A DNA stretch of 64,000 bases from Waddliaceae bacterium. Lineage in GTDB: Bacteria > Chlamydiota > Chlamydiia > Chlamydiales > Waddliaceae. Each line of letters opens with the position of its first letter. Positions within the stretch are counted from its first letter, which is position 1. Made by a program: the position numbers and the translations under genes. Where the stretch lies: the NCBI GenBank assembly GCA_963724325.1, contig CAVRUH010000007.1:160001-224000 (forward strand), given 5' to 3'. The notes beneath the pieces were generated by a model. That model did no database searches and had not been told where the DNA came from. It saw only the letters and a list, made by a program, of their open reading frames with translations. Positions 31,656 to 49,883 of this stretch are shown here, in pieces.

Positions 31656-31684
31656 ATTATAAATAAAATTTCGGGATTTGTCAA
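31656..31684 (-). promoter_or_regulatory. Consensus sigma70 promoter of paralog B
   Basis: TTGACA-17 nt-TATAAT. Confidence 0.8.
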
Positions 31685-31703
31685 TTCCTATTTAATATGG
31701 TTT

Positions 31704-33533
31704 CGGGAAAGTAGGGGCACATGTTGACCCCCCTACCACCTATGATAAGATTAAATTAAAGTGTTTAGGAACCAAATATAAAGAGAAATTAATGTATGCA
31801 ATGAAAGTTTATTATGAAGATATAAAAATAATTTTAAACATTCCTAGAAAAATTTGAATATAATAAGGCAATGAAAATTAAAGTTGGCTTCGATTGTGCA
31901 TTGCCACCACTGCCCTGCGAAATTCTGCTGGTTGTATGGTTAGCGATAAATCATCCCCTGTTATTTTATCTTTCACATACTTCTCATAAACGTTCAGGCT
32001 TTGCCAAGGATGATCTTTCATAAATAGCTTGAGAAATTCGAGATTGTTATGACAGTTATCGTTTACTACGGGAGAGCCGTCTTTGAGTAGCTTATGTATC
32101 CACCCCCCGATATTTTTGATTTGTTATCCTTCGTGTATTCTTTTATAGGCAAATTTCACTACATCTACTAAGCGTTGTGAATGGTATTTTCTAGTCCAAT
32201 AATTAAGAGTGTCATCATCTACATTAAGCTTTTGCTCCTTTAGCCATAAATATACCCTATTTTGTTCCGCGGTTAATTTGTAGGGTGACTTGCTGTTGAT
32301 TTCGTTGGTTTTACTGGTATTATTCAGATGCATACTTCTACCTCCAATTTGGCATGCAATATGCATATTTATATCAAGAATTTGTTTTAAAAAAAAGACT
32401 TCATTACTAGGATGACCTTCGAGTAAAGGAGGCATCCGTAATGAAGTCAAAACATGAACCAACACCGTACTGTAATATGGTTAACAAAAGAAGTAAAGCA
32501 GAACAAGAGGCAATTCGCTTGCAAATGGTGAGATATGCCGAAAAACATGGGAAAAATGCTACCGAAAAGAAATTTGGGTGTAGCAAAAATACTGTTGATC
32601 TTTGGGTTGAAAGATATAAAATTGAAGGACGTTCCGGACTAGTTAATCGTAGCCGGGCCCCTAAGAATATTCCACATAAAACATCTCAGGAAGACGAAGA
32701 TTATATCGTTAAGTGTCGCAAGGAAGTTCCGTGTTACGGACCGAAACGACTGAAATGGTTTTTTGAGATTAAGGCTTCTGAAGATGCTATAAGAAGGATT
32801 CTTAAGTCCAGGGGCTTGGCAAGAAAGCGAAAGAAAAAGCACCATACAAAAAACGATCTCCGAGCAATTAAGGCAAAATATAAAGCACTCACACACCATC
32901 AAGAAGATGTTAAGCATCTGAAGGACATTCCGTATTATTGGACACAAATGCAATCACTAGGCCTTCCTAAATATCAATATACGATTAGAGATACGAAAAG
33001 TGGTGGTACAGTTTTAGGATTCGCTGATGAATACAGTGAACAGTATTCAATACTATTCACTTCGTTTTATTTAGATTGGCTAAAGTATTTCAAGGTTGAT
33101 TTGAGTGAAGTAATTGTGCAGACGGACAATGGAAGCGAATTTGGTGGTGGAAGGCAACGCGGTGTAAAGGTGGATGGATTTGTCGATCTTATAGAGAGTC
33201 GGTTTGGTGCCAAGCATAATTATATTCCTCCGAGTATGAGCAATGCGAATGCAGATGTCGAAAGTATACACAATACGATTGAAGTTGAATTTTTTGATTT
33301 AGAGAAGTTCAGTTCAAGGGATGATTTCTTCATAAAGACTCAAATGTATCAAAATTTCTATAATTTTTCGCGACCTAACTTTTCTAAAAAAGCTAAGACA
33401 CCTGTACAAATAATAACAGAAGATAGAAATATTAGCCCGTCCGTGTTATTTACACCTATAGTTGATCTCGATAAATTATATAGAAGTCAGTTTTTCCCTG
33501 GAGAGGGGGGTCAACATGTTCCCAATTTGTCCG
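31704..33533 (+). mobile_element. 1830-bp two-gene IS (IS481/IS1202-like DDE), copy 1
   Basis: Imperfect TIRs CGGGAAAGTAGGGGCACATGTTGACCCCCCT / CGGACAAATTGGGAACATGTTGACCCCCCT; 15-bp direct repeat tatttaatatggttt at 31689-31703 and 33534-33548. Confidence 0.92.
31878..32333 (-). pseudogene. IS accessory gene (151-aa consensus), premature stop in copy 1
   Basis: GGAGG RBS, MHLNNTSK...; codon AAA of copy 2 is TAA here (32124-32126). Confidence 0.75.
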
Positions 33534-33604
33534 TATTTAATATGGTTTTTTTTTGTGTTGCATTCCCTAATATCTCTTGCTATACAACCAGATATAACTT
33601 TTAA
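32441..33604 (+). CDS. DDE transposase (HTH plus integrase core), intact
   Basis: N-terminal HTH (FGCSKNTVDLWVERY..G..GL), YGPKRL, QEDVK, VQTDNGSEF, NADVESIH. Confidence 0.92.
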   Translation: MKSKHEPTPYCNMVNKRSKAEQEAIRLQMVRYAEKHGKNATEKKFGCSKNTVDLWVERYKIEGRSGLVNRSRAPKNIPHKTSQEDEDYIVKCRKEVPCYGPKRLKWFFEIKASEDAIRRILKSRGLARKRKKKHHTKNDLRAIKAKYKALTHHQEDVKHLKDIPYYWTQMQSLGLPKYQYTIRDTKSGGTVLGFADEYSEQYSILFTSFYLDWLKYFKVDLSEVIVQTDNGSEFGGGRQRGVKVDGFVDLIESRFGAKHNYIPPSMSNANADVESIHNTIEVEFFDLEKFSSRDDFFIKTQMYQNFYNFSRPNFSKKAKTPVQIITEDRNISPSVLFTPIVDLDKLYRSQFFPGEGGQHVPNLSVFNMVFFCVAFPNISCYTTRYNF

Positions 33605-33631
33605 TTCACCGCTACTTCTTTGGAGACTATT

Positions 33632-47367: not shown

Positions 47368-47919
47368 TTACTTGCTTTTTGGTGCTTCTTCTGCGTGGAC
47401 TTTATCTACGAGAAGATATAGAGGTGGTTCTTTATGCGGTTGGTAGAGAGTCCCTTCAACAATAAAGGTTTTATGTGTTGCCGAATTTTCTTGAATAGAT
47501 TTGAGAATATTGTCATCGAGCTTAAGATACTTGCCGGCGGGTTCCTCTGGTCGGTAGCTTACTAATTCGAAGCTTGTATTGTCCCCTTCAGAAACTAGCT
47601 CGACTCGATCTTTGGTTGCATTGATTCTACCTCGCACCACAACAGCGATGTCATAGAGGCCAACTCCGACCCTTTGCATGGGTCGTTTGATAGCTTTATA
47701 GGAAAAAGGTTGATATTTCTTCCATTTGATATTGATAGTTCCAGAGAGATTACTGACTGTAAATGATTCAATTTCCTTAACTTCTTTGAAGCTGTCGTTG
47801 AGGAGGACGACGCAGTTCTCGTTGCATGACCGTTCTCTCCATCGAACGACGACGGATTGGATCTCCGCCTGTAGCGATCCTAGACAAATCAACGAAGCTA
47901 AAATGAGTAGTTTTTTCAT
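47368..47919 (-). CDS. Exported protein with an HMA-like CxxxC domain
   Basis: Signal peptide; SCNENC followed by a ferredoxin-like pattern. Confidence 0.55.
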   Translation of the reverse strand: MKKLLILASLICLGSLQAEIQSVVVRWRERSCNENCVVLLNDSFKEVKEIESFTVSNLSGTINIKWKKYQPFSYKAIKRPMQRVGVGLYDIAVVVRGRINATKDRVELVSEGDNTSFELVSYRPEEPAGKYLKLDDNILKSIQENSATHKTFIVEGTLYQPHKEPPLYLLVDKVHAEEAPKSK

Positions 47920-47953
47920 ATATTCTGATCTATCTCAAAAATGACCAAATTTG

Positions 47954-49069
47954 TCAAATAAATTTTTTATCTTCCACGGACAAATTGGGAACATGTTGAC
48001 CCCCCTCTCCAGGGAAAAACTGACTTCTATATAATTTATCGAGATCAACTATAGGTGTAAATAACACGGACGGGCTAATATTTCTATCTTCTGTTATTAT
48101 TTGTACAGGTGTCTTAGCTTTTTTAGAAAAGTTAGGTCGCGAAAAATTATAGAAATTTTGATACATTCGAGTCTTTATGAAGAAATCATCCCTTGAATCT
48201 GAAATTCTCTAAATCAAAAAATTCAACTTCAATCGTATTGTGTATACTTTCGACATCTGCATTCGCATTGCTCATACTCGGAGGAATATAATTATGCTTG
48301 GCACCAAACTGACTCTCTATAAGATCGACAAATCCATCCACCTTTACACCGCGTTGCCTTCCACCACCAAATTCGCTTCCATTGTCCGTCTGCACAATTA
48401 CTTCACTCAAATCAACCTTGAAATACTTTAGCCAATCTAAATAAAACGAAGTGAATAGTATTGAATACTGTTCACTGTATTCATCAGCGAATCCTAAAAC
48501 TGTACCACCACTTTTCGTATCTCTAATCGTATATTGATATTTAGGAAGGCCTAGTGATTGCATTGTGTCCAATAATACGGAATGTCCTTCAGATGCTTAA
48601 CATCTTCTTGATGGTGTGTGAGTGCTTTATATTTTGCCTTAATTGCTCGGAGATCGTTTTTTGTATGGTGCTTTTTCTTTCGCTTTCTTGCCAAGCCCCT
48701 GGACTTAAGAATCCTTCTTATAGCATCTTCAGAAGCCTTAATCTCAAAAAACCATTTCAGTCGTTTCGGTCCGTAACACGGAACTTCCTTGCGACACTTA
48801 ACGATATAATCTTCGTCTTCCTGAGATGTTTTATGTGGAATATTCTTAGGGGCCCGGCTACGATTAACTAGTCCGGAACGTCCTTCAATTTTATATCTTT
48901 CAACCCAAAGATCAACAGTATTTTTGCTACACCCAAATTTCTTTTCGGTAGCATTTTTCCCATGTTTTTCGGCATATCTCACCATTTGCAAGCGAATTGC
49001 CTCTTGTTCTGCTTTACTTCTTTTGTTAACCATATTACAGTACGGTGTTGGTTCATGTTTTGACTTCAT
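47954..49069 (-). pseudogene. DDE transposase of copy 2, two frameshifts
   Basis: One base lost near 48565 (acacaatg vs acacaaatg) and one gained near 48197. Confidence 0.88.
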
Positions 49070-49807
49070 TACGGATGCCTCCTTTACTCGAAGGTCATCC
49101 TAGTAATGAAGTCTTTTTTTTAAAACAAATTCTTGATATAAATATGCATATTGCATGCCAATTTGGAGGTAGAAGTATGCATCTGAATAATACCAGTAAA
49201 ACCAACGAAATCAACAGCAAGTCACCCTACAAATTAACCGCGGAACAAAATAGGGTATATTTATGGCTAAAGGAGCAAAAGCTTAATGTAGATGATGACA
49301 CTCTTAATTATTGGACTAGAAAATACCATTCACAACGCTTAGTAGATGTAGTGAAATTTGCCTATAAAAGAATACACGAAGGAAAACAAATCAAAAATAT
49401 CGGGGGGGTGGATACATAAGCTACTCAAAGACGGCTCTCCCGTAGTAAACGATAACTGTCATAACAATCTCGAATTTCTCAAGCTATTTATGAAAGATCA
49501 TCCTTGGCAAAGCCTGAACGTTTATGAGAAGTATGTGAAAGATAAAATAACAGGGGATGATTTATCGCTAACCATACAACCAGCAGAATTTCGCAGGGCA
49601 GTGGTGGCAATGCACAATCGAAGCCAACTTTAATTTTCATTGCCTTATTATATTCAAATTTTTCTAGGAATGTTTAAAATTATTTTTATATCTTCATAAT
49701 AAACTTTCATTGCATACATTAATTTCTCTTTATATTTGGTTCCTAAACACTTTAATTTAATCTTATCATAGGTGGTAGGGGGGTCAACATGTGCCCCTAC
49801 TTTCCCG
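47977..49807 (-). mobile_element. Two-gene IS, copy 2 (1831 bp, inverted relative to copy 1)
   Basis: Near-identical to 31704-33533; own 15-bp direct repeat attttttatcttcca at 47962-47976 and 49808-49822. Confidence 0.92.
49177..49633 (+). pseudogene. IS accessory gene of copy 2, +1 frameshift in a G-run
   Basis: G7 at 49402-49408 versus G6 in copy 1. Confidence 0.75.
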
Positions 49808-49883
49808 ATTTTTTATCTTCCAAATTAACACAATCTTTACGATACTTAAGTACAGTCAGATGTACAATGATGGAGGTTTTGTC

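Follow-up and report, generated by a model that had tools for sequence, protein, structure and literature searches.

The 64,000-nucleotide (nt) stretch of a Waddliaceae bacterium genome that was analysed here (assembly GCA_963724325.1, contig CAVRUH010000007.1, positions 160,001 to 224,000; the window) carries two copies of an insertion sequence (IS), termed element A, which appear to follow a family-wide rule of base-pair-precise promoter targeting in an IS481-like lineage that works like ISLre2 and TnGBS without being a member of that group. On the basis of the two window copies, the first-pass annotation had proposed promoter-guided insertion at a constant distance, and this proposal now has strong support from some 140 sites across several phyla, among it an independent enrichment of -10 boxes. 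The target site duplications (TSDs) of these elements are 14-16 bp long. In most lineages, their promoter-side edge is separated by 4 bp from the -35 box that follows, and in one acidobacterial clade the edge and this box overlap by 1 bp.

Both insertions in the window share the geometry that had been described for them. The motif ATTTGTCAA (31676-31684 at site 1, 47949-47957 at site 2) is followed by a gap of 4 nt and an exact 15-bp TSD, the two TSD sequences differ, and the elements lie in opposite orientations. At site 1, the -35 box faces away from IS copy 1 towards the gene at 30688-31551, and the minus-strand promoter TTGACA-17-TATAAT matches the consensus at 12 of 12 positions, as claimed. 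At site 2, the -35 box lies upstream of the gene at 47368-47919; its -10 box had been called weak, and indeed there is no TAnnnT at a spacer of 16-18 nt and no consensus -10. An unoccupied paralogue of the site 1 promoter, TTGACA-16-TATAAT on the minus strand (30589-30617), is found upstream of the duplicated gene 29698-30483, with 24 bp identical to 31662-31685.

The genome (2.37 Mb, 11 contigs), the gene content of which would suit an environmental chlamydia, contains six full copies of element A, all with a 15-bp TSD and none inside an open reading frame (ORF) of at least 150 amino acids. TTGAC lies within positions -5 to +4 relative to the TSD edge in all six copies, five of which have it beside their right IS end and one beside its left. 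It starts at +4 in four copies and at -4 and -5 in the other two, so that the claimed 4-nt offset holds for four of six. The 9-mer ATTTGTCAA itself is not conserved; what is conserved is its TTGAC(A) part, other copies at +4 reading TTGACG-TCA and TTGACA-TTA. Among the four copies outside the window, two have TTGAC exactly at +4 (p = 3.9e-5, computed against the intergenic TTGAC frequency with either side allowed), and the flanks of relatives are enriched beyond background as well.

These relatives were gathered from genome and metagenome collections, of which 17/64 and 5/64 parts were scanned, and by whole-genome searches, with ends and TSDs called by script. An exact TSD of 12-18 bp was obtained for 93 of 200 end-finder candidates (15 bp in 76 and 14-16 bp in 92 of the 93), and only de-duplicated sites with TSDs of 14-16 bp entered the spirochaete and acidobacterial register counts. 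In Spirochaetota, where 40 of 124 candidates were scored, TTGACA (5-6 of 6 positions matching) is located at +4, counted from the left TSD, in 24 of 31 de-duplicated sites, against a background of 0.6% per position. Genes point away from the spirochaete elements in 24 of 28 cases on the motif side versus 12 of 29 on the other side; GC-rich loci make this ORF-based count untrustworthy, and Acidobacteria were left out of it. For Cloacimonadales, 26 of 41 matches were fetched and 18 of 26 junctions had an exact TSD; the -35 box is at +4 in 13 of these 18 sites, ten of the 13 being at the right end. One-off elements from several phyla have it 19 nt from the left tip in 12/35 and 14 nt from it in 3/35. 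In the acidobacterial group, the -35 box is found at -1 in 19 of 32 sites, the TSD including the first T of the box. This offset is confined to a single clade (support 100/100) that comprises 33 rows of the 63-row tree, and the 63 element types are accordingly not independent; in this tree, the label L14 attached to L012, L023, and L057 is a labelling artefact. The 4-nt gap to the -35 box is kept in relatives with 16-bp TSDs, which identifies the promoter-side cut as the fixed one.

Reinsertion at an occupied target has produced tandem copies with one TSD between them at L099, L104, L164, and L343. Recent bursts are represented by at least 40 identical copies in the spirochaete genome G101 (2.7 Mb) and about 41 copies in the Cloacimonadales genome G419 (1.6 Mb). 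On a 1.8-kb contig binned as Methanosarcinales (L032), possibly misbinned, a family member adjoins a TTGACA-17-TATGCT site of bacterial type.

Loose AT-directed insertion with subsequent selection against copies that are not upstream of promoters would be compatible with the intergenic sites of element A, and small host-dependent genomes are known to lose genic insertions. Selection of this kind does not yield a single-base register with clade-specific offsets, though, and no -35 position recurs in the flanks of four other multi-copy elements from this genome, which makes this explanation very improbable. A 601-bp repeat family (18 copies) with a recurring -35 was left out of this control, its ends being unresolved and its 'flank' probably being element sequence.

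The -10 box provides evidence that is independent of the -35 hexamer. The sites in the GC-rich Acidobacteria have TAnnnT at a spacer of 16-18 nt in 20 of 32 cases (17-18 nt in 19 of 32) and on the opposite side in 2 of 32, while the background amounts to 1.5% of flank hexamers and no other spacer between 10 and 25 nt is represented by more than one site. A -10 box is present at 11 of 13 of the acidobacterial sites with a poor -35 box (3-4 of 6 matches) and at 9 of 19 with a good one, compared to about 2% of matched non-ORF hexamers. Such compensation of a poor -35 by a -10 box would be the pattern expected of holoenzyme binding. One-off elements show TAnnnT 16-18 nt further on in 19 of 35 cases, versus 2-10 at most other registers.

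A paralogue in the same genome, element B, which is present in six copies of 1,473 bp (44% identity, TSDs of 14-15 bp, no accessory gene), belongs to a sister clade together with G288, G282, and G418, of which 15 of 19 copies had an exact TSD and were counted. TTGACA is found at +4 in none of these 15 sites, even when a match of 4 of 6 positions is accepted. In 11 of 15, TAnnnT starts at a distance of exactly 27 nt from the TSD (p = 7e-14 at a local background of 3.4%), in 8 of 15 as an extended -10 with TGn before TAnnnT, and CTTWAY is located at the TSD edge in 11 of 15. Since 27 nt equals 4 + 6 + 17, the -10 position in the sister clade is the same as at site 1 of the window. Because a clade devoid of TTGACA keeps the -10 box at this position, it is apparently the promoter footprint, and not TTGACA alone, that sets the insertion site. 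On a first reading, element B had seemed to lack a link to promoters, which was overturned by the -10 box at +27 in the sister clade and by the Cloacimonadales data.

Several observations weigh against guidance by polymerase, and some of them would be accounted for by a transposase which itself reads promoter-like DNA, that is a TTGAC or CTTWAY word combined with AT-rich, bendable or melted DNA, without any polymerase contact. In spirochaete and Cloacimonadales sites, the sharp -35 signal comes without TAnnnT enrichment (1/31 at a background of 8% and 2/18, respectively), which reduces the data there to a -35-like hexamer. A weak TGG bias is seen near the -10 region of spirochaete sites, and these hosts may use other -10 sequences, or recognition of the -35 box may suffice. 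The CTTWAY of the sister clade indicates that the transposase reads some DNA directly, and a similar word (C-T-T-x-A-Y) is found near the TSD edge in several clades. Furthermore, one cut in the acidobacterial clade would fall within the -35 box, a position that bound sigma region 4 would make sterically awkward, the register of two of the six local copies deviates by 8-9 bp, and the putative promoters at the target sites are defined by sequence consensus. Direct reading leaves unexplained, on the other hand, that a poor -35 box is offset by a -10 box at sigma70 spacing (11/13 versus 2%) and that the clade lacking TTGACA retains the same distance to the -10 box; mimicry of both sigma elements and of the extended -10 would be required of a single family of enzymes. 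Direct reading is thus regarded as unlikely, though by no means negligible, and the integration complex is probably guided by promoter-bound RNA polymerase. We infer a contact of the transposase with RNA polymerase or sigma from a register that is fixed to promoter elements, has clade-specific offsets, and is independent of the accessory gene and of the sequence of the inverted repeats (IRs).

This independence bears on two further suggestions. The first-pass annotation had considered that the transposase recognizes targets resembling its own ends, and insertion next to such sequences is known for IS911 and IS30. The IR of element A does contain TTGACC 19-20 nt from the tip, matching the target TTGACA in position. 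The corresponding inner IR motif varies among relatives, being GTACCC in spirochaete and GTATCC in acidobacterial elements, yet their target stays TTGACA, and element B shows the opposite mismatch, with TTGACC in its IRs and targets without TTGACA. Mimicry of the element's own ends has therefore hardly any probability left.

The same applies to the divergent accessory protein, which had been put forward as a possible targeting factor; such an adaptor role is scarcely credible. It is a real conserved protein with 37 homologues and a confidently predicted structure (predicted local distance difference test, pLDDT, 91), and four contigs seem to be common to the match lists of the accessory protein and the close transposases. 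Its homologues were found only in the element A copies of this genome and in loci outside the family, and none is present in the promoter-targeting spirochaete, acidobacterial, Cloacimonadales, and sister-clade elements examined. To speak of a two-gene IS was an overstatement, as the gene is intact in one of the six local copies; three identical copies share a nonsense codon in it, and the other two have a frameshift. The protein corresponds to the C-terminal 150 amino acids of a 366-amino-acid helix-turn-helix (HTH) protein in other chlamydial genomes, for which a weak N-terminal match to HTH_36 was obtained. In genome G305 (L291, L304, L306), a broken homologue of this domain follows a canonical, unrelated IS481 transposase in at least five copies, apparently by independent capture of a passenger domain. 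Based on its relation to the 366-amino-acid protein and its occurrence beside this unrelated IS481, the accessory gene is best read as a passenger. No Foldseek match was found for the accessory protein at E <= 0.001, the best structural match having a Z-score of 6.6 over 65 residues, and an Atlas search gave weak leads only, to Rep C-terminal domains.

A second feature of the family concerns the ends of the elements, which are imperfect repeats of about 30 bp with the termini NGG...CCN. The transposase runs off the right end without a stop codon of its own in 62 of 63 element types, as it does across the right IR of IS copy 1, and leaves a 1-nt overhang in 57 of the 62. At the left end, a frame beginning 1 nt after the tip is open for at least 30 codons in 57 of 62 types (mean of 25 and maximum of 35 in 200 shuffles), with an ATG within the first 14 codons in only three types. 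The encoded peptide has the family-conserved consensus GxxxxHRxP..LKCxSxxRxxEL, and conservation extends past the IR, with an LKC-like strand followed by a helix-like KR..EL segment and with in-frame indels. Synonymous differences are in excess (1781:1106, from non-independent pairwise counts among 31 left ends). In element B, L311, and Cloacimonadales, the left tip is 1 nt shorter and the peptide shifts to frame 0, whereby its phase with the inner IR block is kept. In 19 of 28 acidobacterial and 17 of 36 spirochaete copies, target sequence supplies the remainder of a stop codon at the tip. Searches with the peptide returned no Pfam, PDB-sequence or convincing Atlas match.

The simplest reading of these end frames would be an in-frame fusion at the junction of a circle with a spacer of 1 mod 3, and the left-end peptide is likely a C-terminal extension of the transposase that is fused only in the circular intermediate. 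Integrase genes of phage Mx8 and SSV1, the C-terminus of which is altered upon integration, offer analogies. Such circles were sought in several data sets: no junction was found in the contigs from 8 publicly available DNA runs (at a depth of roughly 2-10; contigs drop rare molecules, which keeps this result from speaking for an absence of circles), with one degenerate pattern in viral contigs, or as a fusion among 120 transposase homologues searched with a peptide profile. ISKpn21 forms circles with linkers of 1-3 or 5 bp (PMC5001619; cited works are represented here and below by excerpts), and linkers this short would make an in-frame junction fusion feasible. All tandem end-to-end junctions that were seen have spacers of 15 nt and correspond to repeat insertions at one target; a spacer of this length would put the majority type of left end out of frame and counts against the fusion. 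That a targeting transposase is made only when the ends join, and that the junction-fused peptide docks on the holoenzyme for integration upstream of promoters, is accordingly offered as a tentative proposal with somewhat less in its favor than against it. If true, the junction fusion would represent a transposase gene that is permuted and switched by stage and has a compact module for docking on polymerase, evolved independently of the Mutator-type promoter seekers.

Taken together, the following course can be envisaged. The integrated element would yield a transposase without its own stop codon, which would copy it out in circular form. Where the two ends meet in the circle, the transposase likely becomes joined in frame with the start-less left-end peptide, giving an integration-competent enzyme. 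The fused enzyme likely contacts the holoenzyme via sigma region 4, the beta flap or the C-terminal domain of alpha and would cut the DNA just upstream, between about -36 and -54, while itself reading some of the local sequence, as suggested by CTTWAY in the sister clade. The outcome would be a safe harbour in which ORFs and the core promoter remain unbroken, while an upstream UP element or activator site would be split from the promoter.

Table 1. Coordinates of element A copies, their target sites and their components in the window.
Feature	Position	Strand	Remarks
IS copy 1 (element A)	31704..33533	+	1,830 bp, tips CGG...CCG
Site 1 TSD, left copy	31689..31703		15 bp
Site 1 TSD, right copy	33534..33548		15 bp
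Site 1 -35 box TTGACA	31679..31684	-	TSD+4 nt, 19 nt from left IS tip
Site 1 -10 box TATAAT	31656..31661	-	spacer 17; begins 27 nt past TSD edge
Left imperfect IR, copy 1	31704..31734	+	inner conserved block ACATGTTGACCCCCCT
Right imperfect IR, copy 1	33504..33533	-	tip-to-inner-block distance 1 nt less than left
Left-end start-less frame, copy 1	31705..31857	+	50 codons, open from left tip
Accessory gene, copy 1	31878..32333	-	151 codons, nonsense TAA at 32124-32126
DDE transposase, copy 1	32441..33533	+	no stop inside element; frame continues to 33604 in flank
IS copy 2	47977..49807	-	1,831 bp
Site 2 TSD, promoter-proximal	47962..47976		15 bp
Site 2 TSD, distal	49808..49822		15 bp
Site 2 -35 box TTGACA	47952..47957	-	TSD+4 nt, 19 nt from right IS tip
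Left-end start-less frame, copy 2	49654..49806	-	no differences from copy 1 in this stretch

IS copy 1 is identical to two further copies on contig C1, and loose ends of short-read contigs fall at its tips. In IS copy 2, the transposase gene (start at 49069) has one 1-nt deletion and one 1-nt insertion, and the accessory gene (49177-49633, plus strand) is frameshifted. A truncated element A fragment is located at C7:504008. Near this fragment, the end sequence of a 51-bp near-perfect inverted repeat from the window (34334-34438) occurs again, and the same end sequence bounds a 2.3-kb element with four copies. Tandem repeats of 39 bp and palindromic ACAGGATATGC repeats are found at 56378-56840 of the window and in G000 C1 near 69600, and one element A copy sits among such repeats. 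The segments 37147-38194 and 41154-42806 contain a near-identical partial and rearranged duplicate of a gene that we take to be phosphoglucomutase-like, representing either a real duplication or an assembly artefact. A 723-amino-acid protein encoded at 34627-36798 has a long unique N-terminus followed by a PP2C-like phosphatase domain (PF13672, E 9e-12) and looks like a secreted chlamydial effector.

The transposase of about 360 amino acids matches the Pfam models HTH_28 and HTH_32 with an N-terminal HTH and rve_3 with its core, an RNase H fold whose DDE residues D156, D229, and E274 do not vary among 43 homologues. Its predicted structure (pLDDT 85) matches the fold of IstA, TnsB, and retroviral integrases. 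Close relatives are found in Chlamydiales and Parachlamydiales records, and the closest annotated plasmid proteins are named 'IS481 family transposase' (27-29% identity). The best NCBIfam model is IS481 NF033577 (E 2.7e-38), with 132 bits and thus below the cut-off of 224. The ISNCY model NF033594, which we take to stand for IS1202, matches the N-terminal HTH only (residues 38-143, E 2e-5, 23.8 bits versus a cut-off of 250). Models of IS481, IS3, and IS630 are among the Pfam and NCBIfam matches of the transposase, none of which belongs to a Mutator/IS256-type family.

With the IS481 family, element A shares an HTH and an rve-type DDE transposase of the IS3/IS481 type. IS481 TSDs range from 2 to 15 bp and mostly have 6 bp, 15 bp being reported for ISMac4, ISA0963-1, and the eukaryotic IS481EU (PMC10045372); the 15-bp TSD of element A is at the upper edge of this range. 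ISMac4 and ISA0963-1 were set against the present element by their description. The excerpts of PMC10045372 mention neither promoter targeting nor a stop-less transposase and give the 15-bp-TSD members without target rules. In contrast to IS481, the termini are CGG...CCG (TGG/CGG/AGG and CCT/CCG/CCA in relatives) instead of TGT...ACA, and residue +7 after the catalytic E is E instead of K/R. The ISTde1 subgroup of the IS1202 family is similar in having 15-17-bp direct repeats, a DDE domain related to IS481/IS3, and extra conserved aspartates between both catalytic D residues, but it differs by TGT instead of NGG ends and by Q in place of the invariant E281 at +7 (bioRxiv 10.1101/2022.12.17.520857). 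The ISAba32 subgroup of IS1202 targets host xrs sites, and the excerpts of the same source report no promoter targeting. The element is thus an IS481-like lineage without the strict membership features of IS481 and ISTde1.

Fixed-distance insertion upstream of promoters has been described for TnGBS/ISLre2 (p-MULT 3) and the ISKra4 group (p-MULT 4), which are Mutator-like DDE elements (PMC3942029). A full-text search outside subscription papers, supplements, and ISfinder/TnPedia pages returned only these elements, and the excerpts of large IS surveys including PMC9208149, according to which ISLre2 and ISKra4 prefer positions 50-250 bp from genes, do not describe such a rule. How TnGBS/ISLre2 find promoters has the status of a proposal (PMC3942029). 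A second, unrelated single-protein system of about 360 amino acids, with registers at +4, at -1, and anchored to the -10 box and with a candidate docking module of 30-50 amino acids, makes polymerase docking directly testable. Moreover, copies of the family would pinpoint promoters of uncultured bacteria with base-pair precision, exchange the regulatory DNA upstream of host genes in a systematic way, and suggest a compact tool for safe-harbour integration. With TnGBS/ISLre2/ISKra4, the present family shares fixed-distance insertion upstream of sigma70/sigma-A promoters. It differs from them by an unrelated transposase of the IS3/IS481/integrase type and by a distance of 19 or 14 bp between the IS tip and the -35 box, compared to 15-17 bp in the excerpts of PMC3942029. 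It is further set apart by TSDs of 14-16 bp, a sub-clade which lacks the -35 box and is anchored to the -10 box, and the start-less left-end peptide.

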